Notes: generated by a model not told the origin, from the letters alone. DNA of 32,000 bases from Vulcanisaeta distributa DSM 14429 (GCF_000148385.1 NC_014537.1:900001-932000), one strand, 5' to 3'. Counted from the stretch's first letter, positions 1,402-22,558 are shown. Program-made: numbers and translations.

Positions 1402-3270
1402 TTGATGAGATTATTATTCATACATGCAGAGGATTTCTCATACCAGGTTAGGGATAAGGCTGTTGAAAACCCAGAACCACTAACGCCAGAGCTTGAGAAG
1501 GGCTCCGCAAGGAATGCGCTCGTGGTATTCATGAGCGTTGAGGAAAACGATACTGAGGACCCTAATTACGTGGATTACGTGGCCGACGAGATACTGGACG
1601 TACTTAATAAGGTTAAGGCATCACAAATAGTTCTCTACCCATACGCACACCTAAGTCCCAACCTAGCCAAGCCAGGTAAGGCATTGAGCGTATTGCTAGC
1701 GGTTTACAATAGGTTGAGGGAGAAGTCACCTGTCCCTGTGTCAAGGGCGCCCTTTGGTTATTACAAGGCATTTGACATTAAGTGCTATGGACATCCTCTA
1801 TCGGAATTAAGTAAATCCCTTAGCCCAAACATGGTTAGTGCCCAGGCAGTGCAGCAGCAAGTGGTTAGTAGGGACTACTACGTAATATTAACGCCGAGTG
1901 GTGAGGAGTACGATGCAACGAAGTACCCATTTAAGCCAGGCGAGGATGACCTAAAGGCATTGGTTGAGAAGGAGGTCTTGAAGAGGGAGCTTGAGGGTGG
2001 CAAGGAACCTAGGTATATTGATTACTGCCGTAAATTTGGCTTTGAATGGGAGCCCATGAGTGACGTGGGCCACATGAGGTATGGACCGGCAGCCACACTG
2101 ATGATGGAGCTCGTTGAGGATTATGCATGGAGGTTAGCCAATGAGCTTGGCATACCAGTGTTTAAGATCAGGGGTACTAACATGTTTAGGCGTGGTGAGA
2201 GGGCTATTGATGAGCATGCCAGGTTATTCAATGAGAGAATGTACACGATCGAGGGTGATAAGGACGAATTAATAATGAGATATGCCGCCTGCTTCCAGCA
2301 ATTTGCAATGATTAGGGATTGGGTGCTGAGTTATAGGGACATACCAATTGGAATGCTTGAGGTGGCTGATAGTTATAGGTATGAGCAACCCGGCGAGACA
2401 GTGCTATGCTTTAGGCTCAGGAGGTTCTATATGCCAGACCTCCACATATTCACGAGAGACCTTAAGAACGCCATGGAGGTCGCCCTAAAACTACACGAGG
2501 TGATATTCAGGGAAATTAGGAAGTTGGGTAGGGATTACGTGAGTCTGTATAACGTCACTAAGCAGTTCTACGATGAGCACAGGGACTACTTAATCGAGTT
2601 GGCTAAGCGTGAGGGTAAGCCAATTCTCGTTAGGGTAATGCCGGAGCAGAAGTACTACTGGGTTCTTAATGTGGAGTTTCACATAGTTGATGAGTTGAGA
2701 AGGCCGAGGGAGATAGCCACGTTCCAGTTCGATGTTGGTAATGCCCAGAGGTTCGGCATTAAGTATAGGGATGAGAATGGTGAGGTTAAGTACCCAGTAA
2801 TTATACATACAGCAATAATAGGTAGCGTTGAGAGGTACATATACGCACTTCTCGACACAGCAGCAATTGCGGAGTCCAGAGGTGAGGTTCCGAGATTACC
2901 AACATGGGTCTCGCCAGTACAGGTTAGGGTGATACCAATTAGTAAGGAGCACCTGGCCTTCGCGAATGACATTGCCTCGAAACTCGAGGATAGGATGATT
3001 AGGGTTGACATTGATGATAGGTTTGACGAGACGTTGGCTAAAAGGGTTAGGGACGCGGAGACCTTCTGGGTTCCCTACATCGTGGTGGTTGGTGATAGGG
3101 AGGTTAAGACCGGCAAGTTAAGCGTTAGGGTCAGGGGTACTCAAAAGCCCATTGATATGGGCGTTGATGAGCTTATTAGTAGGGTTGAGGAGGAGATTAA
3201 GGGTTACCCGAGGAGGCCGTTCACAATGCCCAAGTACCTAAGCATGAGACCTGCAAGCATAATAACTTAA
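1402..3270 (+). CDS. thrS: Threonyl-tRNA synthetase, full-length archaeal type (N-terminal DTD-like editing domain, class II catalytic core, anticodon-binding domain)
   Basis: 622-aa ORF. The N-terminus 'MRLLFIHAEDFSYQVRDKAVENPEP...LYPYAHLS...APFGYYKAFDIKCYGHPLSEL' matches the archaea-specific ThrRS editing domain as I remember it from Pyrococcus. The class II core and a C-terminal 'PVQVRVIPIS' anticodon-binding-type segment follow. The track start at 1402 is TTG; the adjacent ATG at 1405 is the more likely start. Confidence 0.93.
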   Translation: MMRLLFIHAEDFSYQVRDKAVENPEPLTPELEKGSARNALVVFMSVEENDTEDPNYVDYVADEILDVLNKVKASQIVLYPYAHLSPNLAKPGKALSVLLAVYNRLREKSPVPVSRAPFGYYKAFDIKCYGHPLSELSKSLSPNMVSAQAVQQQVVSRDYYVILTPSGEEYDATKYPFKPGEDDLKALVEKEVLKRELEGGKEPRYIDYCRKFGFEWEPMSDVGHMRYGPAATLMMELVEDYAWRLANELGIPVFKIRGTNMFRRGERAIDEHARLFNERMYTIEGDKDELIMRYAACFQQFAMIRDWVLSYRDIPIGMLEVADSYRYEQPGETVLCFRLRRFYMPDLHIFTRDLKNAMEVALKLHEVIFREIRKLGRDYVSLYNVTKQFYDEHRDYLIELAKREGKPILVRVMPEQKYYWVLNVEFHIVDELRRPREIATFQFDVGNAQRFGIKYRDENGEVKYPVIIHTAIIGSVERYIYALLDTAAIAESRGEVPRLPTWVSPVQVRVIPISKEHLAFANDIASKLEDRMIRVDIDDRFDETLAKRVRDAETFWVPYIVVVGDREVKTGKLSVRVRGTQKPIDMGVDELISRVEEEIKGYPRRPFTMPKYLSMRPASIIT

Positions 3271-3328
3271 TACTCAGTACTCTTCCCAATCATCACTCAT
3301 CAGGCAGCAGCCCTGTTCTTCACCGATT
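3270..3328 (-). ncRNA. C/D box sRNA (2'-O-methylation guide), double-guide architecture
   Basis: The minus strand reads GGUGAAGA(C, one mismatch; 3317-3323)-13 nt 'ACAGGGCUGCUGC'-CUGA(D'; 3300-3303)-UGA-GUGAUGA(C'; 3290-3296)-12 nt 'UUGGGAAGAGUA'-CUGA(D; 3274-3277). Box order and the 12-13 nt / 3 nt spacings are canonical for archaeal C/D sRNAs. It lies in the 3' region of the minus-strand gene 3389-4054 and abuts the thrS stop codon. Confidence 0.6.
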
Positions 3329-3388
3329 TTAATTATGAGAAAAGGGAAAAATTAAAATTTAATTTTGAAATAGAATTGCTATTAATCA

Positions 3389-4054
3389 TTAGCCTGATAC
3401 GCCGTACCAAGGAGCCCACTTAGACCAAATTAATGTGTGTTCAAATGTGGCACTTATGCCTATGAAGAATGCCAAGATGCCAGATAGTATTAACAGGATC
3501 ATGACGATGACGCCCACGTACCTACCAACATTACCCCTTGGCAGCATGGCGCCTGGGCTAATGAGCATGGCAAGCCCAAGCAATATGTACATGGCACTCG
3601 CAAATAAGGGCTCTGCGGTTAACCCATGCACCAAAATATCAACACCATAAACAATAACTGGTATGCTAAACAACACTATGGGTAATGCCAGGTACCTCAG
3701 GTCCGCGCCTATGTACATGGCTAAGCCAAGCATTAATGATACTAGGCCAAATATCGGCCATGCATCTGAAAAGATTATATTATATGGGCCTGGGAGTGGC
3801 CAAGTCATTGTAGCCCAAAGACCAGTGATCAGTGCGTAAATACCAACACTAATGAAGAATAGGCTTAAGCACCTATTCACATTAAAGCAAACAGTAACTT
3901 CCTGCGTCCTCTCCACAGTTTCAGCCCTAGCCCCATCAGTAGCTATCCTAGGTTTTCTAACAAAGTTCATGAAGACTCCATATGCAGCAGTTATTAGTGT
4001 TATTCCAAGTGTCATTAGCCAGATGTCCAGCGTATCCATAAAGAGACCGGCCAT
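3389..4054 (-). CDS. Integral membrane protein, about 6 hydrophobic helices, unknown function
   Basis: 221-aa ORF dominated by hydrophobic stretches of about 20 aa (e.g. 'IWLMTLGITLITAAYGVFMNF', 'VGVIVMILLILSGILAFFIGI'). A TATA-like palindrome lies about 26-42 nt upstream. No family recognised with confidence. Confidence 0.7.
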   Translation of the reverse strand: MAGLFMDTLDIWLMTLGITLITAAYGVFMNFVRKPRIATDGARAETVERTQEVTVCFNVNRCLSLFFISVGIYALITGLWATMTWPLPGPYNIIFSDAWPIFGLVSLMLGLAMYIGADLRYLALPIVLFSIPVIVYGVDILVHGLTAEPLFASAMYILLGLAMLISPGAMLPRGNVGRYVGVIVMILLILSGILAFFIGISATFEHTLIWSKWAPWYGVSG

Positions 4055-4079
4055 TACCTATCACCAAGTGCACTCATTT

Positions 4080-4096
4080 GTTTATAATTTATAAAC
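4080..4096. promoter_or_regulatory. Perfect 8+1+8 palindrome GTTTATAA-T-TTATAAAC; TATA-box-like element upstream of the minus-strand start at 4054
   Basis: Read directly from the sequence. It sits 26-42 nt upstream of the ATG at 4054 (minus strand), inside a 216-bp very A/T-rich divergent intergenic region (4055-4270). Confidence 0.4.
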
Positions 4097-4270
4097 TAGT
4101 GAATAAATGCATTTAATGCACTTATTTTATGATTAAAAAATTCATCATTTTATATTGTATTAAATAGTATATAAATAAATGTTTATGAACATAAAACTAT
4201 TCATATATATTCTTATTTATTCCTAACTTATGAAAAATTGATTTAAAATCCCAGGACCAAGTTACTCATA

Positions 4271-5464
4271 GTGGTTAGGTTTAGTGAATTACTACCTGAA
4301 TTCTGGAGGGAGTTTAGGTTTTGGCGTAATGTGAGTAATGAACTTAATGGTTCATCACCGCCTGGGAACTTCATTGGTTCTATGAATTATCCCTACATTA
4401 ATGTTGGTGCATTAATTAATGATGGTAGTATTGATGCGTCGATACTTGATAACCCAGAGGAGTGGTTTAGGCGTGGCTTTACCCAGTGGGATATTGTCAA
4501 GCTGAGGTCTAGAATAATACTTAGTAGGACGAAGACCTCGGTTAAGTCATTTAGTAATTCTATAATTGATAGGATTCAGGAGTTGAGTATTGGGCGTAAT
4601 CCGGTTAATGTTGAGGTTAGGTTGAGGAAGTTGGTGCTTAGGGCGTTGGCTGATGATTACCACGCACCACTTGGTAATATTGGTGAGTTGAGGGATTTGA
4701 GAATAACATCTAATGTCAGTGCTGAGGGCATAATTGAGAGGTTAGTGAATGATTATGATGTGGATGCCAGGACGGCGGTGATTGAGTTATACCGTGGCTC
4801 AATACCTATATCCCGCATACAACGCATCTTCGCGGTTGGGTTGTTGGGTGATAGGAGGTTTAGGAGGTTAGTTCCAACCAGGTGGTCCATAACGGCGGTC
4901 GACTCAATAATTGGTGAATATCTTAGGGACAGGGTTGTCGATTATAATGAGGTTGGGCAAGTCGAGGTTCATGAAATGGAGTACATGGGGAATAGGTACT
5001 TCGTAATACTCATACCTGGTCCGTGGAGGTATGAGCTTATTGAGCTGAAGATGCCAGGGTCAGTGTGGAATAGGGATAGTCATTCGCCTAGGGTGTACGT
5101 AGATTATGAGGGGGTTAGAGGCATGAAGGGGTATGCGGAGAGTACGGGTGGTGCGTTCTATGCAATTAGGCTTGGCGTACTGGAGTACCTTAATAGGATT
5201 GGTAGGCAAGCATCCGTGATAGCGGTTAGGGAAGTAACCCCAGAGTATAGGGTCCCGGTCGGTATTTGGCAGGCCCGTGAGGCTGTTAGGAATGGCATGG
5301 GGATTAATACGAAGAGGTTCTCGGATATCAACGAAGCGATTAATTACGTGAATTCCTCATTATCAACAGGGGATTTATGGCTTGTCCATAGCCACCTCAT
5401 TAGGGAGTTCAGGAGTGACCTGACTAGGTTCCTACTTAATGATCGAGAGAACCATACCTATTAG
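4271..5464 (+). CDS. Nre-family protein (archaeal DUF650/DUF651-type putative DNA repair protein), lacking an N-terminal zinc-ribbon
   Basis: 397-aa ORF with a GTG start. Segments 'SSPPGNFIGSMNYPYINVGAL' and 'LVPTRWSITAVDS' resemble the conserved Nre N- and C-terminal blocks as I remember them. An in-frame stop at 4244-4246 prevents any N-terminal extension. The C-terminal 'SDLTRFLL' is weakly PIP-box-like. Confidence 0.55.
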   Translation: MVRFSELLPEFWREFRFWRNVSNELNGSSPPGNFIGSMNYPYINVGALINDGSIDASILDNPEEWFRRGFTQWDIVKLRSRIILSRTKTSVKSFSNSIIDRIQELSIGRNPVNVEVRLRKLVLRALADDYHAPLGNIGELRDLRITSNVSAEGIIERLVNDYDVDARTAVIELYRGSIPISRIQRIFAVGLLGDRRFRRLVPTRWSITAVDSIIGEYLRDRVVDYNEVGQVEVHEMEYMGNRYFVILIPGPWRYELIELKMPGSVWNRDSHSPRVYVDYEGVRGMKGYAESTGGAFYAIRLGVLEYLNRIGRQASVIAVREVTPEYRVPVGIWQAREAVRNGMGINTKRFSDINEAINYVNSSLSTGDLWLVHSHLIREFRSDLTRFLLNDRENHTY

Positions 5465-6295
5465 CAGAAATACCGTCAGTACCGGCGAGCTTGCCTTAAA
5501 CATCTGCCAGAAAACCTCCCTGCTAGGCTTAATCATGGCCTTAACACTGTAATAACTGCTCCAGGCCGCTGTAATGAGTAGTATTATCAACCCAATGAGG
5601 TTCCTGAGGAATAGTATGTAGAGGAATAGCATGTATATGTTTGAGATTACGTTAAGTAATGCAACCATGATCATGGCCCTATCCTCGCTCATCTCCAGGG
5701 GTAGCATCTTGATGCAGGTCCTCGAGTAATCATCCTTAGCCCTAATAACTAAGCTCCAAATGTGTGCGGGTATCCACAAGTATATGGCCATAGATAATAA
5801 AATAGCCTCAAGATCTAGTGGTTTCGCCACAGTCCACCCAGTCAGTAACGCTGCATTACCAGCCACACCACCAATTAGTATGTTGCTCCAGCTCCTACAT
5901 TTTAGGAAAACCGTATAGACTATTGCGTATAAAAACCAGCCGAGCACCACGAAGATCGTGGGTATAGTGCCAAGCCATAGGTATGATAGGGCAAAGCCAA
6001 GGATTGATAAAACCAGGGACTCGATCAACGCATTACCTGGACTCACCCGACCAGCTGGTATCGGCCTATTCCTAGTCCTAATCATCTGTGCATCAATATC
6101 TCTCTCGTAGTACATATTAAATGCTGCGGAACCGCCAGTACTTAGAAGCCCAACGAGTGTTAGCTCAACTACGTAAGCTATGTTGACCCTCGGTGACGCG
6201 GCAAATACGTAACCAGCCACTGCGGCGAGTACGAGTAGCCAAATGACTCTCGGCTTCATTAATAGTACGTAGTCCTTAATTGCCACATTTGACAT
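5432..6295 (-). CDS. ctaB: Protoheme IX farnesyltransferase (heme O synthase), UbiA family
   Basis: 287-aa polytopic membrane ORF with the UbiA-type motif 'NMYYERDIDAQMIRTRNRPIPAGRVSP' and N-terminal 'LMKPRVIWLLVLAAVAGY', typical of CtaB/CyoE. Its 3' end overlaps the convergent Nre gene by 33 nt. Confidence 0.88.
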   Translation of the reverse strand: MSNVAIKDYVLLMKPRVIWLLVLAAVAGYVFAASPRVNIAYVVELTLVGLLSTGGSAAFNMYYERDIDAQMIRTRNRPIPAGRVSPGNALIESLVLSILGFALSYLWLGTIPTIFVVLGWFLYAIVYTVFLKCRSWSNILIGGVAGNAALLTGWTVAKPLDLEAILLSMAIYLWIPAHIWSLVIRAKDDYSRTCIKMLPLEMSEDRAMIMVALLNVISNIYMLFLYILFLRNLIGLIILLITAAWSSYYSVKAMIKPSREVFWQMFKASSPVLTVFLLIGMVLSIIK

Positions 6296-6437
6296 TGATT
6301 AATTATTGCATTAAAAACTTTATTTCAAAATCCACGTTAAGTAATTAGTGAATCCCTGTTCAATTAATTTAACATGAGTTATGCAACCCCTTATTTTATT
6401 TAATAACAATAAAGCCTAGGCAATACCCATTAATGAT

Positions 6438-8042
6438 GTGAAGGTTGGTGTTGTGATTAAGGCGCAGAGCCCCAGGGCATTCTGGTTTAGGGTATTTGAT
6501 AATGTTGAGGATAGGATAAACGTTGGTACATTCGTAACCCTGGACAATTATGAAAGTAGGGTCAATGGCCCAATACTTGCAAGGGTGACTAGGGTTATTA
6601 GGCATAATTACCTGGTGGATGATAGGGTCATCGCCCAGCTGGGAAGTGAGGACGTTATAAACACCTTCAGGGACTATGGGATAGACATTCAATATATTGC
6701 CCAATCAACGCTGGCCAGGGCATCAATCATCGGTTACAGAGTCGGTACACGATTCTCTAAACCGCTTAAGCCTCCAAAGCCCATGGACTTCGTATACCTA
6801 CCAACAGAGGGTGAATTGAGTAAGTTACTTAGGCTCGATAATGGTGGTGTTAGGCTTGTCATTGGTAGTGTTAGGTCACTATCAATACCTGCTGAGCTAG
6901 ACGCCAATAAGTTAGTGTCTCATCACTGTGCAATACTGGCTGCCACAGGTGGTGGTAAGTCCTGGCTCGCCGGTGTTATTGTTGAAGAATTAGTATTGAG
7001 GGCAGAAATACCGATAATAATCATTGATCCCCACGGCGAATACTCAGCAATGCAGGTTCCTAAATCCTCAGTTGATGATGCTAAGTATGTGGCTAGTCTA
7101 GTTAAGGTATACGTACCCGGCAAGGTCGATACCACGAGCTTAGATGATTACTTCAAGGCTCGGTTCAGTGTTAAGAGGAAGTATGTGAGGTTTGGCATCA
7201 ACCCAAGGTCATTATCACTGAGACTCATGGAGGGACTACTCGACCATTATTACGGACTTACTGACGCCCAGAGGAGGATTCTTGAGGAGGCCTGGCAATA
7301 CATGGGTATGGATAACGAATTAACGGGCCTAGACGAGTTCCTCAATGACCTGGAGAAGAGCGGTGGTAGGGTTGTTAAGGGCTATGGTAACGAGCTAGCC
7401 CTATCCACGTTATTGACTAAGGTTAAGATGCTCATTGAGAACAGGCCGTTTTTCATAACAAGGCCTGGTGAGTTTTACGGTAATGAACCGATAAGGCTCC
7501 TGGACATTAAGGATCTAATGGAGTATGGAATCCACGTACTGGATCTTAGCGGCTTAGACTTAGTAGATCAACAGGCACTTGTTGCACTGATACTAAATAA
7601 TATATTCAGGATATCCTCAATGAGGAGGGATAGGCTGGTCTTCATAGTTGTTGAGGAGGCTCATAATTATGCGCCATCGGTTGGTTCATCATTAAGTACG
7701 TCAGCACTAATAAAGATTGCCAGGGAAGGCCGTAAATTCGGTGTTGGGCTATGCATAATTAGCCAAAGACCGTCCAAGGTGCACCCAGACGTTTTGAGTC
7801 AATGCTTAACCCAGGTCTTTAAGAGGATAATAAACCCGGTCGATCTTAGGTATGTGAGGAATGTGGTTGAGTTCATATCTGATGAGGATTTATGGGAGGT
7901 GAGGGTTCTTAATGAGGATGATGCCTTAGTGACAGGGTTGGCTGTTCCAATGCCATTACCTGTTAAGGTTAGGGATAGATTGACGGAGCATGGGGGTGTG
8001 ACGCCAGCGCTTATACCGAGGGGTAATATCACTAGGGTGTAA
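6438..8042 (+). CDS. HerA-family (FtsK/HerA superfamily, DUF87-type) hexameric translocase ATPase paralogue
   Basis: 534-aa ORF with a GTG start. It has an N-terminal HAS-barrel-like segment ('VGVVIKAQSPRAFWFRVFDN...GTFVTLDN...ILARVTRV'), Walker A 'AILAATGGGKSW' and Walker B 'LVFIVVEEAHNYAP'. The later 'GRKFGVGLCIISQRPSKV' is typical of HerA/DUF87 ATPases. Confidence 0.85.
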   Translation: MKVGVVIKAQSPRAFWFRVFDNVEDRINVGTFVTLDNYESRVNGPILARVTRVIRHNYLVDDRVIAQLGSEDVINTFRDYGIDIQYIAQSTLARASIIGYRVGTRFSKPLKPPKPMDFVYLPTEGELSKLLRLDNGGVRLVIGSVRSLSIPAELDANKLVSHHCAILAATGGGKSWLAGVIVEELVLRAEIPIIIIDPHGEYSAMQVPKSSVDDAKYVASLVKVYVPGKVDTTSLDDYFKARFSVKRKYVRFGINPRSLSLRLMEGLLDHYYGLTDAQRRILEEAWQYMGMDNELTGLDEFLNDLEKSGGRVVKGYGNELALSTLLTKVKMLIENRPFFITRPGEFYGNEPIRLLDIKDLMEYGIHVLDLSGLDLVDQQALVALILNNIFRISSMRRDRLVFIVVEEAHNYAPSVGSSLSTSALIKIAREGRKFGVGLCIISQRPSKVHPDVLSQCLTQVFKRIINPVDLRYVRNVVEFISDEDLWEVRVLNEDDALVTGLAVPMPLPVKVRDRLTEHGGVTPALIPRGNITRV

Positions 8043-8108
8043 TTTAAGTATAATTTGAGTATAATAGGGTCAGGTAAAACTTTTATTGTACTCTCGTGAA
8101 CGATTACT

Positions 8109-9074
8109 GTGCGTATAATCCTTGGTACGCCGGTGAACTCGAGGCCTAAGCCTTGGCTTTACTTCCGCGTACCAGCCATAATGGTTAATGCCTTTGACAT
8201 TATGAGGAGCAGAATTAGTAAGGGAGGTCATGTTATAAAGAATGTGCTTCAGTACGATGGTGAGGTTTGGATGGATAGTGGTGGTTTTCAATTTCTAAGG
8301 TATGGCAAAATACCTGACATTGAGGATTTAGCCAGGGTTTATGATCAGTATTGGGATATCAGGTACTTCCTGAACCTTGACTACCCACCAAGCCCCACTG
8401 ACGATGAGCATAATTTAGAACTGAAATTAAGGGGATCACTCCATAATTACGAGTACTTGGCTAAGAAATTTGATAATGTCTTACCAGTAATTCATTACCA
8501 CTGGAGAACTAACATTATTACTAAGTACGTGATTAAGTACCTGGATTTTAACCCAGACTGCATCGCAATAGGTGGCTTAGTGCCTTACGTATTAATAAGT
8601 AGAGGTGTACCTAAGGATTCACGAAGATCGGCACTGAGGTTCTTACTAAATATCAAGCGAGAAACTAACACGTGCATTCACGTACTTGGTCTTGGATCCC
8701 CAGTAATAAATCCAATACTCAAGCTCATAAACATTGATAGCACAGACACAAGTACCTGGAGGGTTAAGGCAGCCTATGGAAAGGTTGTCATGCCAGGCGG
8801 TGGTGAAAGGCACGTCAGTGGTAGGGCCATAAACTTCGGAGGTAAGGAGGCCACGAGCGACGATTTAATGAGGTTGTACGCGTTCCTTAAGGCTACGGGC
8901 TTTCCCATGATTGATCAGTTTAATGAGATTGTAACGAGCTTTGAATATAGGGCTTTGGTCAACGCGTGGGTTGTTCTCAATAGCTTTAAAGTGGCGAGTG
9001 GTGGCGTGTTTAAAGCCATATATGATGAATTGGCAAGGGAGGTTACGGAACAGATTATTGAGGGTACACGTTAG
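8109..9074 (+). CDS. Stand-alone TGT-superfamily transglycosylase, DpdA-like (short form, no Zn motif, no PUA/C-terminal domains)
   Basis: 321-aa ORF with a GTG start (alternative ATG at 8181). It carries ordered TGT signatures: 'MDSGGFQF', 'LNLDYPPSP', 'IAIGGLVP', 'HVLGLGSP', 'IDSTDTSTW...AAYGKVV'. There is no CxCxxC...H motif, only two isolated Cys. A TATA-like 'TTTTATT' sits at 8081-8087, about 24 nt upstream. Confidence 0.7.
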   Translation: MRIILGTPVNSRPKPWLYFRVPAIMVNAFDIMRSRISKGGHVIKNVLQYDGEVWMDSGGFQFLRYGKIPDIEDLARVYDQYWDIRYFLNLDYPPSPTDDEHNLELKLRGSLHNYEYLAKKFDNVLPVIHYHWRTNIITKYVIKYLDFNPDCIAIGGLVPYVLISRGVPKDSRRSALRFLLNIKRETNTCIHVLGLGSPVINPILKLINIDSTDTSTWRVKAAYGKVVMPGGGERHVSGRAINFGGKEATSDDLMRLYAFLKATGFPMIDQFNEIVTSFEYRALVNAWVVLNSFKVASGGVFKAIYDELAREVTEQIIEGTR

Positions 9075-9115
9075 GGATTACATTTATTAATGCTTATCGT
9101 CCCTATGGAATTACC

Positions 9116-9463
9116 GTGAGAAAGGTTCAGAAGAATTGTTTAACGCTGGTTGTGGATGTGTGCAATGATACGTTAGATAGGTTTAAGGGGGTCATGAATG
9201 CGGCTATTAGGAGGGTCGGCTTTGGTGGTGCCCTGAGGGTTCTCGTTTATAAGTGCAGGGAGCTCGACTTCAATAAATATATTAGAGAATTAAATTCAGT
9301 GATAGCCAATAATTTCTCCGTATCAATATTCGTATATGAATTCGATGATTTAAATGCCATAGTTAATGAGTTAAATAAGAACATGCTTCATGGCTGTGAT
9401 AGTTATGGCGTATTATCAACCATAGATTTACCGGCAAGTATTAATTATGAGAAATTGAAATAG
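9116..9463 (+). CDS. Hypothetical 115-aa protein, third gene of the HerA/TGT-like string
   Basis: ORF with a GTG start, 41 bp after the TGT-like gene on the same strand. It has host-like codon usage (AGG, GAG) and alternating hydrophobic strand/helix patterns ('LTLVVDV', 'ALRVLVYK', 'SVSIFVYEF'). No family recognised. Confidence 0.45.
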   Translation: MRKVQKNCLTLVVDVCNDTLDRFKGVMNAAIRRVGFGGALRVLVYKCRELDFNKYIRELNSVIANNFSVSIFVYEFDDLNAIVNELNKNMLHGCDSYGVLSTIDLPASINYEKLK

Positions 9464-9569
9464 ATGGCTTGACTATATACGGTATACGTTGAATAGCCCT
9501 AAGCTATTGATATCACTCTATATTCTAATAAATTACTATGGGTACCCTAGTTTCATGTCGTATTCTTTC

Positions 9570-9626
9570 GGTCTCAGCTTAGCCCAGTACATCATGGTTC
9601 AGACCTTGCAAGCATCATCACTTAGT
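9570..9626 (-). ncRNA. C/D box sRNA (2'-O-methylation guide), double-guide architecture
   Basis: The minus strand reads GUGAUGA(C; 9615-9621)-12 nt 'UGCUUGCAAGGU'-CUGA(D'; 9599-9602)-ACC-AUGAUGU(C'; 9589-9595)-11 nt 'ACUGGGCUAAG'-CUGA(D; 9574-9577). It lies immediately 3' of the minus-strand gene 9632-10309, in otherwise non-coding DNA. Confidence 0.7.
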
Positions 9627-9631
9627 AATTA

Positions 9632-10309
9632 TCATTCAATCCAGTAATAATGGTCAATGGACCTATTAAGTACTGGGTCGTATAACTCGATCTCGAAATA
9701 ACCACTGGGCTTTATTTGACCTTTTATTGTCGGTATTGTGCCCGAAAAGACAACGACATTCTTTAAATCAGGCACCACCTCGCGTATTAAATCAACGAGT
9801 TTTTCCGGCGTTAGTAGGAACTTCATGGTACCCTCCTGATAAAGGGTCTTCTTATCATCCTCAAGAATCCAACTCCTCAGTACTAGGTCATCCCAATGAT
9901 CCTCAATCTCCTTAAGTGGCCAAGCTCTTCTGGCGACGATCTTCGGGTACATGTGCTTACCGGCAAGTAAACTGCACCTCTCGGCTTCCCTGTCTGTGTG
10001 GTCGCTGCCGACGGTTACGTAGATCTCATCCTCATTCTTAATTAGTAATACGTACTCAACCTCACCGCTGTGTAGGTCACTTACCTTCCTAATGTAGTTA
10101 CTTGTGGTTACTAGGTATGGCTGTAGTATGTATATTTCGGGTATGTTCTTAGGACCACTAATGCCTATCCTGCTCAGTTCCTCAACCTCCTTCTTAATGA
10201 TGTCGGTAGTCCTCCCAGACCAGACAAAGATCACTAAGTCGCTAACAGCGATTTCTATATCTCTCTCGTTACCGTTCTTGAACTCTATGGTTACATTAAG
10301 TCTATGCAT
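9632..10309 (-). CDS. Conserved hypothetical protein, probably DUF2848 family
   Basis: 225-aa ORF. 'LVIFVWSGRT', 'GSDHTDREAE', 'LRSWILE' and 'VFSGTIP' fit my recollection of DUF2848 proteins. The family call is from memory only. Confidence 0.6.
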   Translation of the reverse strand: MHRLNVTIEFKNGNERDIEIAVSDLVIFVWSGRTTDIIKKEVEELSRIGISGPKNIPEIYILQPYLVTTSNYIRKVSDLHSGEVEYVLLIKNEDEIYVTVGSDHTDREAERCSLLAGKHMYPKIVARRAWPLKEIEDHWDDLVLRSWILEDDKKTLYQEGTMKFLLTPEKLVDLIREVVPDLKNVVVFSGTIPTIKGQIKPSGYFEIELYDPVLNRSIDHYYWIE

Positions 10310-10414: not shown

Positions 10415-10873
10415 ATGATCTCTGAAATAGTCAGGGTGGGCCTTGTTTCGGAGATTAGGCTCTCAATACCAAATGCTGATGATGCCCTTGACTACCTAAG
10501 GCTAATGCTAAATAACTTAATAGGATTAATGGCTTCAATACCCCCAGCCTTAGCCCAAAGCGTTAAGCCTGAGATACCAATATTCGTAAAGTCCGCGGAT
10601 GGCGAGGCTGAAATATCAATACATTACTCACCCCTTATGCCGTTAATAAGGATTAGGACGTCTAAGGACTTGATAAATAAGGTAAGTGGTGTAAACTTCA
10701 TAGGTGTTGTGCTGGACTCAGGGGGAACTATATTGAAGATGTATAAGGGTAAGGATGAGATGAGTAGGGATAGGGAGAAGATACTCCTCGTCTTTAGGGT
10801 GTTTATGAACTCCGACGTTGAGCTACAGCCATTACCAAGTGTGCCCAGGGGGCAGGGCGGCGTCATTATTTAA
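10415..10873 (+). CDS. Hypothetical 152-aa protein
   Basis: ORF with host-like codon usage, upstream of the L37Ae string. The segment 'VSGVNFIGVVLDSGGTILKMY' is faintly Roadblock/LC7-like but misplaced for that fold. No family assigned. Confidence 0.55.
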   Translation: MISEIVRVGLVSEIRLSIPNADDALDYLRLMLNNLIGLMASIPPALAQSVKPEIPIFVKSADGEAEISIHYSPLMPLIRIRTSKDLINKVSGVNFIGVVLDSGGTILKMYKGKDEMSRDREKILLVFRVFMNSDVELQPLPSVPRGQGGVII

Positions 10874-20158: not shown

Positions 20159-22558
20159 CTACTTGCTTCTTTTTTGCGATTTCGTAACACTAATCATAAA
20201 TTCTGGTATTTCGACATACTTTACATAGTATTGAATGAGGATTTTAATTACCTCTCTAAGCATTAGCATAAGTGTCGATTTCCTAACACCAAGGACCTTG
20301 GCCGCCTCCCTCCAAGGCCTTGCCTGCAGAACCTTGCAAATCAATGCCTCCTCATAGAATTGAGGTAAGGCAATGCTGTCAAGACCCCTCCTCAGGTAAT
20401 ATGTCTTGACAAGCTCAGTTATTGCATCAGCAGTGTTTTCATACGTCATTGGGCCCCATGAATAGGCAATTAAACGCCTAACCTGAGCCTCCGTGAGTCT
20501 AGGACTATACTCAGGATCGAGGGCTTGATCCCAATCAGTTAATAACATCCTAACAACGTCTGGCTCCATGTCATGGAATGGGCCTTGCAACGAATTAAGT
20601 AGTCTCAGCCTAAACTCCTTATTCGCATAAATGGCCGCATCCCTGGCCTTCTCACTTATCGGCTTAACAAGTAATACACTATACTCACCACTTATTGGAT
20701 TTCTCTCAGGGCTTATGTGGACCGGCATGTAACCACTCTTAATCCAGAAATTCAGTAACTTAGCATTAACGCCGAAACCAACACCAACCCAGTCAATACC
20801 CCTTTCCCTGGCCTCCTCCTCAATCCTCCTAAGCATCTCAGTACCAAGACCCCTGTCCTGAAGCTCTGGATGTGTCGCAATCCTAATGATCCTCCAACCC
20901 CTTAACTTGGCGAAGTCCGTAAGCCCCCAATACTTAATTAACCTATCCGGTATTATGTTCCCAGGCAATTTCAACCCCCTCACAACCATGTCAATTAAGT
21001 CATCACTTATGCCACCCTCCTCAGCCAACTCCACAGACACTACGATCTTCCCATTACTAAGCGTTAAGGCCCTTATGAAGTGGTGAGGCGCATCCATCAT
21101 CATGCCCAAGTCGTCGGGTTCATTCCTATAATGGGCCTGGACATAAATACCGAAGAATTGCCTAAGCCTATCCTCACTTGATAGGAAGAACTCCTTAAGA
21201 TTGGGTATTAGGTAATTGAATTCTCGCTTACTTATTAATTCATAATCCTCATCAGTTATTTTCGCAGGTTCGGCATCAAGTAACAAGGTGTCAAATAACC
21301 ATTGTTCCACCGGATCATTAGGCGCATACCTAATTGGTTCCTTAAGCTCGTACTCAATGACCTTCGTATTCTTATCCTCACGTAAATACTTAAGGAACCT
21401 AAGGCTAAAGCCCCTACCTGCACCCTCATAACCATGTATTGTCGATGCATATATAACCCTGTTAAACCTCTCGTGTATTCCATATAGTACGGGGAGCGGT
21501 ATCATCGCAGCCTCATCAACGACCACTATGTCCCTACCCTCCTCGCTAAGCATGTCGTAGGGCCTTACATAGTCTATGAAGATGGAAATACCAACCTTAA
21601 CCGAAACAACATCACCACCCCAATAACTCACGTCTACATCATAATTCAGCGCCTTAAGGCCCTTTATCACGAACTCCATCAGCGTTGAGACATTGCTCGG
21701 GTTCATCGCGGTTACGGCAAACCTAGCCCTACCCTTAGCCTTCCTAAGCCTATGGGCAAGAGCCGCCAATGCCAAGCCAATGATTGCAGACTTACCCCTG
21801 CCCCTATCCGCTATTAACACAACATTCACCTTCCTACCCCTTGGAGGTCTCTCCAGCAGTATTTCCATTGCCCTAAGGGCCTCGACCTGGTCCTGGGTCT
21901 TGGCCAGCTCATATATGGCCTTTGAAAACCTGATTCTCTCAGGCATTACTAACTCCCTTTGCTTCCACGGCTGAGAGTCGCCAATGACCGGTTCCTTTAT
22001 TATCTCGCCACTATCGACATTAATTATTAACGCCTTATCCATGCTCATTAACTTATTCCAAAACCTAATCTTCAGGAAATGCCTAACATCCTCAGGCCTA
22101 TATTGAGGGACTAACAGGCTTTGCTGGAACTTCGTTAGTTGTTTAATCCATTCATTCAGTGGTGGTACCATGAATATGTAGATACCGCCACCCCTAACAA
22201 TACCTCCCATCCTACCCACGTCATTCGGCTTTAAATCATTCATCAGGTCTAGGACTGCGAAGTCTACGGTAATGCCGAGGAGCTTATCCGTATCCTTATA
22301 AGGCCTATAGTCAATACTTGCGGCGATACCCTCAATGAATTCCTTAAACTTACCCATCCTCCTCTGTGCATCTGGGTACTCAGGTTGATACATGTATAGT
22401 CCGTGCGGCTCCTTAACAATTGATGAGAATATTCTGAGGGCGTCTGCCGCGTACTTAGCCAGCCTTTCTTCGTCAGTACCCACGAATACCACGAGCCTCC
22501 TATGATTTGAGGATACGCCCTCCTTAACCAGGCCCTGCAACAGCTCGGTCCAGCCCAT
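20159..22558 (-). CDS. tmcA: tRNA(Met) cytidine acetyltransferase TmcA (NAT10/Kre33 homologue: DUF1726, helicase and GNAT domains)
   Basis: 799-aa ORF with Walker A 'IADRGRGKSAIIGLALA' and a GNAT core 'RIATHPELQDRGLGTEMLRRIEEEA'. Overall size and order are typical of archaeal TmcA. Confidence 0.92.
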   Translation of the reverse strand: MGWTELLQGLVKEGVSSNHRRLVVFVGTDEERLAKYAADALRIFSSIVKEPHGLYMYQPEYPDAQRRMGKFKEFIEGIAASIDYRPYKDTDKLLGITVDFAVLDLMNDLKPNDVGRMGGIVRGGGIYIFMVPPLNEWIKQLTKFQQSLLVPQYRPEDVRHFLKIRFWNKLMSMDKALIINVDSGEIIKEPVIGDSQPWKQRELVMPERIRFSKAIYELAKTQDQVEALRAMEILLERPPRGRKVNVVLIADRGRGKSAIIGLALAALAHRLRKAKGRARFAVTAMNPSNVSTLMEFVIKGLKALNYDVDVSYWGGDVVSVKVGISIFIDYVRPYDMLSEEGRDIVVVDEAAMIPLPVLYGIHERFNRVIYASTIHGYEGAGRGFSLRFLKYLREDKNTKVIEYELKEPIRYAPNDPVEQWLFDTLLLDAEPAKITDEDYELISKREFNYLIPNLKEFFLSSEDRLRQFFGIYVQAHYRNEPDDLGMMMDAPHHFIRALTLSNGKIVVSVELAEEGGISDDLIDMVVRGLKLPGNIIPDRLIKYWGLTDFAKLRGWRIIRIATHPELQDRGLGTEMLRRIEEEARERGIDWVGVGFGVNAKLLNFWIKSGYMPVHISPERNPISGEYSVLLVKPISEKARDAAIYANKEFRLRLLNSLQGPFHDMEPDVVRMLLTDWDQALDPEYSPRLTEAQVRRLIAYSWGPMTYENTADAITELVKTYYLRRGLDSIALPQFYEEALICKVLQARPWREAAKVLGVRKSTLMLMLREVIKILIQYYVKYVEIPEFMISVTKSQKRSK

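Follow-up and report, generated by a model that had tools for sequence, protein, structure and literature searches.

The window analysed here, 32,000 nt of the genome of Vulcanisaeta distributa DSM 14429 (NC_014537.1:900001-932000; coordinates are counted from its first letter), carries a gene for a stand-alone protein of the tRNA-guanine transglycosylase (TGT) superfamily (PF01702 fold) directly downstream of a gene for a HerA-family translocase. The TGT-like protein of 321 amino acids (aa) has the TGT fold with the complete triad of aspartates and possesses neither a zinc site nor RNA-binding domains. Judged by its sequence, it is best placed as a cellular member of the clade that contains the DpdA proteins of archaeal viruses, rather than as a canonical arcTGT or as a bacterial DpdA. 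HerA genes adjoin members of this family recurrently, beyond chance although not universally. We tentatively propose that the two proteins constitute a HerA-assisted module for the exchange of guanine and 7-deazaguanine in DNA. Three open reading frames (ORFs), all on the + strand and separated by gaps of 66 bp and 41 bp, were confirmed at this locus:

6438 to 8042, + strand: HerA-family (DUF87) P-loop translocase paralogue, 534 aa (PF01935, NCBIfam and PADLOC matches)
8043 to 8108, + strand: spacer of 66 bp, in which an A/T-rich stretch resembling a TATA box (cttttatt) precedes the GTG at 8109 by about 22-30 nt (sequence reading)
8109 to 9074, + strand: stand-alone TGT-superfamily transglycosylase, 321 aa, assigned to the archaeal/archaeal-virus 'STSV-type DpdA' clade (AlphaFold2 model, Foldseek, BFVD, PHROG and STSV2_15 alignment)
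9116 to 9463, + strand: orf115, 115 aa, found in Vulcanisaeta only, predicted small alpha/beta domain (homologue search, AlphaFold2 model)

Fold and active site of the TGT-like protein

All five segments which the initial annotation of this DNA had compared with motifs of TGT enzymes (MDSGGFQF, LNLDYP, IAIGGLVP, HVLGLGSP and IDSTDTSTW..AAYGKV) are present in the 321-aa translation. In an alignment of 45 sequences they sit on invariant columns, namely D56 S57 G58 G59 Q61, L90 D91, G155, H191 G194 and D213 W217 R218 K220. The AlphaFold2 model derived from the same alignment reached a pLDDT of 93.8 and a pTM of 0.92. In the fold search of this model that had been suggested, TGT enzymes took the top places: Foldseek found the arcTGT 1iq8 as the best match in the PDB (E 1.2e-12), with bacterial and eukaryotic TGTs next, and the top 50 PDB matches were TGT enzymes without exception (E 1e-12 to 3e-9, TMq 0.54-0.67). 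A profile-to-PDB sequence alignment puts D56, D91 and D213 on D95, D130 and D249 of the Pyrococcus horikoshii enzyme (Ph-arcTGT, 1iq8) and on the equivalent motifs of the DpdA 7ui4, in agreement with the correspondence of the three aspartates to catalytic residues of TGTs that had been read from the motifs. D56 is predicted to act as general acid/base, D91 in base recognition and D213 as nucleophile.

The absence of the modules that accompany this fold in tRNA enzymes, also stated in the initial annotation, was found as well. There is no zinc site of the type CxCxxC...H, as the protein contains two Cys only, neither of them conserved, and the invariant columns of the 45 sequences hold no Cys/His cluster. 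No PUA, C1 or C2 domain was detected in the 321-aa protein with Pfam, where it has no match at E 0.1. orf115 was considered as the second half of a split arcTGT, and neither Pfam nor the fold search gave a PUA-like match for it.

Relationship to arcTGT, bacterial DpdA and viral proteins

The NCBIfam model of TgtA (TIGR00432) gave 31.2 bits (E 7.6e-8), far below its equivalog cutoff of 350, in line with the earlier statement that the protein is not of the arcTGT type, and a weak match to the P. horikoshii arcTGT 1iq8 was obtained with phmmer. The models of bacterial DpdA (NCBIfam NF041059, PADLOC) gave no match to the protein at E 0.1, and it does not belong to the bacterial DpdA family. In a profile search against the PDB, arcTGT was reached with E 1e-16, DpdA 7ui4 with E 0.0039 (19.8 bits) and Cap10 9ntn with E 0.93. 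The earlier label 'DpdA-like' thus holds in part: the closest characterised relatives are DpdA proteins of archaeal viruses, whereas none of the NCBIfam or PADLOC models of bacterial DpdA matches the protein, and its similarity to 7ui4 is marginal (E 4e-3).

The Pfam domain scans of the window took in 17 ORFs; about 12 further ORFs of at least 120 aa, among them ORFs that by eye look like L37Ae, prefoldin beta and a DHH protein, lay outside these scans. With respect to CBASS type IV, no Cap10 similarity of the TGT-like protein and no CD-NTase or QueC-like ORF among the scanned window ORFs were found. Neither DpdB (ParB-like ATPase) nor DpdC (DUF328) is encoded by the scanned ORFs.

The family is large. 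The first search yielded 126 clusters at 90% identity, and an exhaustive profile search gave 653 representatives at E<=1e-10, a number that rises to 2249 at E<=1e-3. Close members were found in Vulcanisaeta, Caldivirga, Pyrobaculum, Thermoproteus, Desulfurococcales, Pyrodictiaceae, Ignisphaera, Ignicoccus, Njordarchaeota and Bathyarchaeia. For distant members of 340-400 aa the arcTGT model gives higher scores than the DpdA models, and neither cutoff is reached. Three contigs of one Pyrobaculum metagenome-assembled genome (MAG; 21I_056.bin.4, loci L023, L029 and L030) each carry a TGT-like paralogue with 43-44% identity to the window protein, due either to paralogue expansion or to a mixed bin.

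The strongest library match of the TGT-like protein was PHROG 887, 'queuine tRNA-ribosyltransferase' (82 bits, E 8e-23). When 50,697 phage and virus records were searched with tblastn, matches were confined to viruses of Sulfolobus and Sulfolobales, with STSV1, STSV2 and STSV4 at 34% identity and 91% coverage (E 2e-33) and rudiviruses at about 25% identity. STSV2_15 can be aligned end to end (residues 1-292, 33% identity, E 3e-42), including the clade-specific C-terminal motifs WRVKA, PGxGERxV and RxLVNAWV, which are common to the window protein and the viral members, and a neighbour-joining (NJ) tree calculated without support values places it among the cellular members of the family. Among the viral structures of BFVD a rudivirus protein ranked first (E 6.7e-18). 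Next came phage proteins annotated as 'queuine tRNA-ribosyltransferase' or 'tRNA guanine transglycosylase', along with unnamed proteins of Vibrio phage nt-1 and Cellulophaga phage phiST. STSV2_15 has been termed DpdA, and the product of the next gene, STSV2_16, which consists of DUF5591 only, has been termed ArcS2 (Hutinet et al. 2023, PMC10516641); this gene order was confirmed here. In the DNA of STSV2, dCDG was detected at 149 per 1e6 nt, and the virus host reportedly lacks the G+ pathway (PMC10516641).

In the related genus Thermoproteus, the short protein exists beside a housekeeping enzyme. According to the annotation table of the T. tenax genome paper, TTX_1934 is tgtA (1,680,673-1,682,196, about 507 aa, arCOG00989), and TTX_1939 near it encodes a stand-alone PUA protein. 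A short family member, P0070, is located at 1,724,088-1,725,065, at a distance of 42 kb from TTX_1934. As canonical tgtA and the short P0070 coexist in this genome, the short protein is an additional paralogue there and not the sole arcTGT. For V. distributa, the family suggests that the 321-aa protein would have the same status.

The HerA paralogue and its linkage to TGT-like genes

The HerA layout that had been read in 6438-8042 was upheld for the central ATPase domain by a match of the 534-aa protein to PF01935 (DUF87/HerA central domain; E 1.7e-35, 123.6 bits at a cutoff of 23.2) and by the presence of both Walker A (AILAATGGGKSW) and Walker B (LVFIVVEEAHNY) in the translation. PADLOC HerA models match the protein with E-values of up to 1e-46. 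The HAS barrel PF09378 was not matched in the window HerA, whereas a precomputed PF09378 is annotated in orthologues that are 45-65% identical to it. Caldivirga, Thermocladium, Pyrobaculum and Thermoproteus have orthologues at 45-51% identity. The NCBIfam equivalogs for HerA of double-strand break (DSB) repair, NF040819 and NF040937, gave 153.6 and 132.1 bits and thus stay below both cutoffs (970 and 800), and the scores are also far below the cutoffs of the anti-phage HerA equivalogs. From these scores we regard the window HerA as a paralogue and not as the canonical HerA of DSB repair. In the Vulcanisaeta JCM drafts L001, L002, L003 and L008 (about 8300-9930) the HerA orthologue is split into two to three ORFs, and in L008 the TGT-like match ends early at residue 249. 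These broken ORFs are probably frameshift errors of the assemblies; if real, they would mean that culture strains can do without these genes.

The survey of gene neighbourhoods took in 80 reference-genome loci with up to 10 kb of flanking sequence. In 18 of these, the TGT-like gene has a HerA-family gene no more than 200 bp away, in one more the distance is 2.5 kb, and the remaining 734 kb of flanking DNA contain 0 HerA-family ORFs according to a search with the HerA hidden Markov model (HMM) and tblastn. The adjacency spans four Thermoproteales sub-lineages and three different orientations. Among the 18 loci, the pair is co-directional in Vulcanisaeta (one MAG excepted) and in two groups of Thermoproteaceae MAGs, convergent in Caldivirga and divergent in a Desulfurococcales lineage. 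With at least three independent HerA associations compared to a background of zero, this is more than chance. The initial annotation had taken conservation of the adjacency as a point of decision; it is recurrent and involves independent HerA subfamilies, but is restricted to certain clades, the genes being unlinked in Pyrobaculum and Thermoproteus. Proteins of 530-730 aa encoded next to the TGT-like gene in HerA-less loci were also considered as divergent HerA candidates and rejected, as the HerA HMM found no more HerA-family ORFs. By eye these neighbours were labelled as radical SAM, ABC permease, glycosyltransferase, CBS-DHH, P-type ATPase, HD, FeoB and symporter proteins, of which Pfam confirmed radical SAM only.

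An operon is not required for the association, because HerA and the TGT-like gene are convergent in Caldivirga and in one Vulcanisaeta MAG. In this MAG (L007) the TGT-like gene alone is inverted (4573-5622, + strand), HerA being located at 5590-7194 and the orf115 homologue at 4129-4479, both on the - strand, which results in a convergent order as in Caldivirga; the inversion of a single gene is either real or an assembly artefact. In the window, a TATA-like A/T box was read 22-35 nt upstream of the start of each gene of the locus. The TGT-like gene may hence possess its own promoter and a leaderless transcript, and separate leaderless transcripts are plausible for the locus.

In the MAGs of the Desulfurococcales lineage, HerA is only 23% identical to the window HerA and is paired with NurA (Pfam 29.9 bits, cutoff 21). 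Beyond the 80 loci, the metagenomic contig L089 (2968-12745) contains a tight operon of NurA, HerA, a P-loop protein of 1402 aa and the TGT-like protein, together with a 507-aa protein without any match, and in the MAG locus L091 (1687-8650) HerA and a protein of 1435 aa are encoded convergently with the TGT-like gene. The two large proteins have a common N-terminal P-loop domain (E 8e-13) and long, coiled-coil-like C-terminal regions; for the 1402-aa protein PADLOC gave no match, Pfam only AAA_16 and nSTAND below threshold (E ~0.01-0.02), and the PDB only insignificant matches. The (NurA-)HerA module with a protein of about 1400 aa may represent an undescribed HerA-anchored capture or defence system. 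In L090 (195-7062), an SF2 helicase of 1708 aa, a PLD-family nuclease of 206 aa and the TGT-like protein are encoded in a tightly co-directional manner, a layout that resembles Dpd-like restriction-modification.

Recurrent partners of 7-deazaguanine chemistry

The most informative partners of the TGT-like family, ArcS-C1/DUF5591 and QueF-like proteins, are found outside the window, at loci that lack HerA. A stand-alone DUF5591 protein (ArcS C1 domain, PCxxxKPY motif) is encoded directly next to the TGT-like gene in Njordarchaeota, other Thermoprotei and Bathyarchaeia, which is the arrangement of STSV2. A 110-aa QueF-family gene directly follows the TGT-like gene in four to five Thermoproteus loci, with an overlap of 56 nt in T. 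tenax. QueF-like proteins are a proven family of tRNA archaeosine synthases. Trm112 is encoded within about 3 kb of the TGT-like gene in 11 loci of Pyrobaculum and Thermoproteus. Through these partners the family is linked to 7-deazaguanine chemistry, but a decision between RNA and DNA as the substrate does not follow from them, because ArcS and QueF-like homologues serve phage DNA-modification pathways too (PMC10516641).

Some neighbourhoods are worth noting individually. In T. tenax (L084, FN869859.1) the short TGT paralogue (5001-5978), the overlapping QueF-family gene (5923-6255) and Trm112 (7938-8357) form a cluster, in which the QueF-family gene probably encodes a QueF-like archaeosine synthase. 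In a locus from Bathyarchaeia (L086, 3779-5942), a nucleoside 2-deoxyribosyltransferase and a HAD hydrolase adjoin the pair of DUF5591 and TGT-like genes, which hints at chemistry at the level of deoxynucleosides. In Ignisphaera (L069, L071, L074-L079), a radical SAM protein of about 593 aa with a zinc ribbon of the HMPTM type is the constant divergent neighbour immediately upstream of the TGT-like gene; it was not assignable to QueE or to an archaeosine-related radical SAM family. A different radical SAM protein of 255 aa is the constant upstream neighbour in Pyrodictiaceae. Its identity as QueE was considered and could not be demonstrated, as it gave generic radical SAM matches only, with no archaeosine-related family among the matches listed.

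Proposed base exchange and the RNA alternative

According to our proposal, the 321-aa protein would be an active guanine/7-deazaguanine transglycosylase in addition to the housekeeping arcTGT. D213 would attack C1' of the target (deoxy)guanosine while D56 would protonate the leaving guanine. D91 and the GGLVP loop would hold the incoming 7-deazaguanine, probably preQ0 or a close precursor such as CDG, supplied by the archaeosine pathway of the cell, and the reverse step would insert this base. The substrate would most likely be DNA, with the HerA hexamer providing ATP-driven DNA handling (translocation or local opening) in the way the ParB-like DpdB does for bacterial DpdA, which needs this ATPase for the insertion of preQ0 into DNA (PMC10164549). 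The DNA substrate, like the base inserted, a physical or functional coupling to HerA and any role of orf115, is inferred, in its case from the viral clade-mates and the dCDG of STSV2, the lack of an RNA-binding module, the separate tgtA of T. tenax and the repeated occurrence of HerA, NurA, helicase and PLD neighbours. Altogether, this suggests that the cell modifies its own DNA. We regard it as rather doubtful that this can be generalised to Thermoproteales and their relatives as a whole, in which a core enzyme of the virus-type DpdA clade, driven by HerA instead of a ParB-like ATPase, would put a 7-deazaguanine (preQ0, CDG or G+) into the cellular genome.

Several points weigh against an exchange reaction on DNA with the help of HerA. 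No HerA is encoded nearby in 62 of the 80 loci, and in P. neutrophilum and one Thermoproteus genome the HerA orthologue (45-47% identity) resides among unrelated housekeeping genes, the TGT-like gene being encoded in the same genomes without linkage. Given the convergent arrangements and the TATA-like box in front of each gene, co-transcription is not established. The canonical tgtA of V. distributa was not located, as an arcTGT search over 1.2 Mb of locus DNA matched TGT-like genes only, and by profile search the TGT-like clade is nearer in sequence to arcTGT than to the solved DpdA. The DpdA assignment in STSV2 is itself inferential, and the modification is low there, with 0.04% of G (PMC10516641); the modification of DNA by cellular members of the clade is putative. 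In Thermoproteus and Pyrobaculum, the QueF-like and Trm112 neighbours fit a role on RNA equally well.

The enzyme could accordingly be a second, RNA-directed transglycosylase of the archaeosine pathway, which serves a second tRNA or RNA site or acts with a QueF-like or ArcS-C1 partner, HerA being unrelated and merely kept by synteny. In favour of such a role, arcTGT is the nearest relative among solved structures and curated families, the locus is core and vertically inherited as would be expected for a housekeeping modification enzyme, and the QueF-family genes after TGT-like genes in Thermoproteus (overlapping in T. tenax), the 11 loci with Trm112 and the HerA orthologues in unrelated contexts in Pyrobaculum and Thermoproteus can all be accommodated. 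However, T. tenax already possesses a canonical tgtA and a stand-alone PUA protein, and the family is devoid of the Zn subdomain and of all known RNA-binding domains. A function on RNA would hardly account for the enrichment of HerA, NurA, helicase and PLD genes near family members, the QueF-like and ArcS homologues are also used in phage DNA modification, and viral members occur in viruses with dCDG in their DNA, the host of which reportedly lacks the G+ pathway (PMC10516641). We consider a role on RNA as rather unlikely and tentatively retain the exchange on DNA.

Genomic setting, defence and repair

The order ThrRS-NreA-UbiA-HerA-TGT-like-orf115-DUF2848-orf152 is syntenic in 8 Vulcanisaeta genomes, the GC content is even over the window and the composition is normal. 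The locus is part of the core housekeeping genome and not a defence island. The ORFs scanned encode an epimerase, ThrRS, NreA, heme O synthase (UbiA family), DUF2848, a T2SSE-family ATPase, TmcA, Mrp antiporter subunits, an LUD-domain protein and an AIR-synthase-related protein, and several have no match at all. Among the 17 scanned ORFs there is no restriction gene, nuclease or effector, nor is there NurA, Mre11, Rad50, queC, queD or queE, as had been noted initially; the window has zero tRNA genes. From the core-genome setting and the lack of a restriction partner, the pair in Vulcanisaeta would be a modification-only module, epigenetic or self-marking, and not a complete defence system. The initial description of the module as 'defence-type' could thus not be maintained.

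An anti-virus module of the Dpd-like or BRC-like kind, in which the TGT-like protein would mark self DNA and HerA would capture foreign DNA or translocate it toward a nuclease, appears improbable for this locus. HerA/FtsK and TGT proteins do occur together in published systems of BREX-related capture (BRC; PMC12839542), the window HerA matches the PADLOC HerA models, and defence-like architectures are seen in L089, L091 and L090, where NurA, a large P-loop/coiled-coil protein or the combination of SF2 helicase and PLD nuclease accompanies the family member. Yet no nuclease, PglZ, BrxC/DUF6079, STAND or DUF4007 protein is encoded by the scanned window ORFs, and the sole GNAT is TmcA at a distance of 11 kb. 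The TGT-like gene has no PADLOC match, its flanks are housekeeping genes conserved over 8 Vulcanisaeta genomes with unremarkable GC, and in the NJ tree orthologues cluster by taxon, which is the opposite of the patchiness of islands.

The NreA-family gene of the window (4271-5464, + strand) is located about 1 kb upstream of HerA, with the divergent heme O synthase gene between them. Its nearest NCBIfam model, 'DNA repair protein NreA', is matched with 279 bits and thus below the cutoff of 700 bits, and the linkage is kept within Vulcanisaeta only. Just downstream of orf115, a DUF2848 protein (E 1e-62; 9632-10309, - strand) and a 152-aa protein without match (10415-10873, + strand) are encoded in a synteny that is restricted to Vulcanisaeta as well. 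TmcA, a tRNA/RNA cytidine acetyltransferase, is encoded at 20159-22558 (- strand), 11 kb from the TGT-like gene. In an unrelated MAG (locus L088), TmcA (2059-4161, - strand) lies less than 1 kb from the TGT-like gene, and a radical SAM gene of 256 aa is also present. The nearness of TmcA in both cases is probably a coincidence.

NurA-HerA pairs are the machinery of end resection. Their position next to family members, the DNA-repair protein NreA 1 kb upstream in Vulcanisaeta and the resemblance in structure between the TGT barrel and Endo IV described in the DpdA paper (PMC10164549) would be compatible with an enzyme of the repair glycosylase type, which removes or exchanges damaged guanines together with HerA (and NurA elsewhere) and does not insert 7-deazaguanine. 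This is very improbable in our view, since the full TGT transglycosylation triad and the preQ0-type GG(L/V)VP pocket are conserved, the recurrent adjacency of ArcS-C1 and QueF-like genes points to 7-deazaguanine chemistry and the NreA linkage is confined to Vulcanisaeta.

The orphan gene orf115

The description of the 115-aa ORF as an orphan was confirmed, as 13 homologues with 66-100% identity were found, in Vulcanisaeta only. Given these homologues, orf115 is a real gene and a genus-restricted orphan. It is situated downstream of the TGT-like gene in L002-L007. In L009, a locus without HerA, an ORF with 33% identity, a weak relative of orf115, takes the same position after the TGT-like gene; orf115 tracks the TGT-like gene rather than HerA. 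AlphaFold2 predicts a small alpha/beta domain with a pLDDT of 75.6, for which the fold search gave no significant match (best E 0.025). No Pfam, NCBIfam or PHROG match was found, and a PADLOC match to JetA (E 0.022) is insignificant. orf115 was also considered as a conserved small partner of HerA orthologues, and this was rejected, since the small ORFs next to HerA in Pyrobaculum or Thermoproteus do not resemble it.

Significance and comparison with known systems

The locus defines a widespread cellular counterpart of archaeal-virus DpdA that is distinct from arcTGT and bacterial DpdA, and its partners, HerA with or without NurA, ArcS-C1 and QueF-like proteins, suggest both a pathway that can be tested and an ATPase partner of a new type for base exchange in nucleic acids. 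V. distributa is cultivable. If the proposal were true, this would be the first 7-deazaguanine DNA modification of a cellular archaeon and a new class of HerA-partner enzymes, and the enzyme would have passed either from the hosts to the archaeal viruses or in the opposite direction. The modification of DNA with 7-deazaguanines is known from bacteria (Dpd), phages and archaeal viruses; no report for cellular archaeal genomes and no description of the cellular STSV-type clade and its partners were found in the literature searched. The findings could help with the question of how STSV2 gets 7-deazaguanine into its DNA, which was raised by Hutinet et al. 2023 (PMC10516641).

The pairing of the two genes had initially been thought to be undescribed. 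No description of a HerA-DpdA pair was found in the literature searched. However, the co-occurrence of HerA and TGT has already been noted in silico for BRC, in a different architecture. BRC comprises the seven components PglZ, DUF6079/BrxC-like, STAND, DUF4007, HerA/FtsK, GNAT and TGT, of which HerA occurs throughout and TGT only in some of the loci, and a 7-deazaguanine marking of DNA was proposed (NAR 2026, PMC12839542). The window locus resembles BRC in that a HerA/FtsK translocase and a TGT protein are encoded together, and differs from it in that the other five components were not found among the scanned ORFs. L089 and L091 may be nearer to the BRC kind.

Like the HerA-NurA systems of archaeal end resection and the Sir2-HerA and DUF4297-HerA systems of defence, the window has a hexameric HerA ATPase next to a partner enzyme, and NurA-HerA flanks TGT-like genes in two other lineages. 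In contrast to these systems, NurA, Sir2 and DUF4297 are absent from the window locus and HerA stays under the DSB-repair and anti-phage cutoffs. With arcTGT/TgtA (1iq8) the protein has in common the catalytic fold, the equivalents of D95, D130 and D249 and a pocket of the GGVVP type; it differs by the lack of CxCxxC...H, C1, C2 and PUA, by its TgtA score (31 versus 350 bits) and by its coexistence with tgtA in T. tenax. The bacterial DpdA-DpdB system (7ui4) likewise combines a TGT fold without tRNA-binding domains, the same three aspartates and an adjoining ATPase, whereas its sequence similarity to the window protein is marginal, the ATPase of the window is a hexameric HerA/FtsK protein and not ParB-like, and DpdC and the restriction genes DpdD-K are absent here. 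Compared with the DpdA of archaeal viruses (STSV2_15/STSV1 ORF18, rudiviruses, PHROG 887), the window gene belongs to the chromosomal core of a cell and is passed on vertically; it is paired with HerA and lacks a DUF5591 or QueF-like neighbour at this locus. Nevertheless, both belong to the same family, with 33-34% identity, are about 290-320 aa long and possess neither a Zn site nor a PUA domain, and the DUF5591 'ArcS2' neighbour of STSV2 recurs beside other cellular members.

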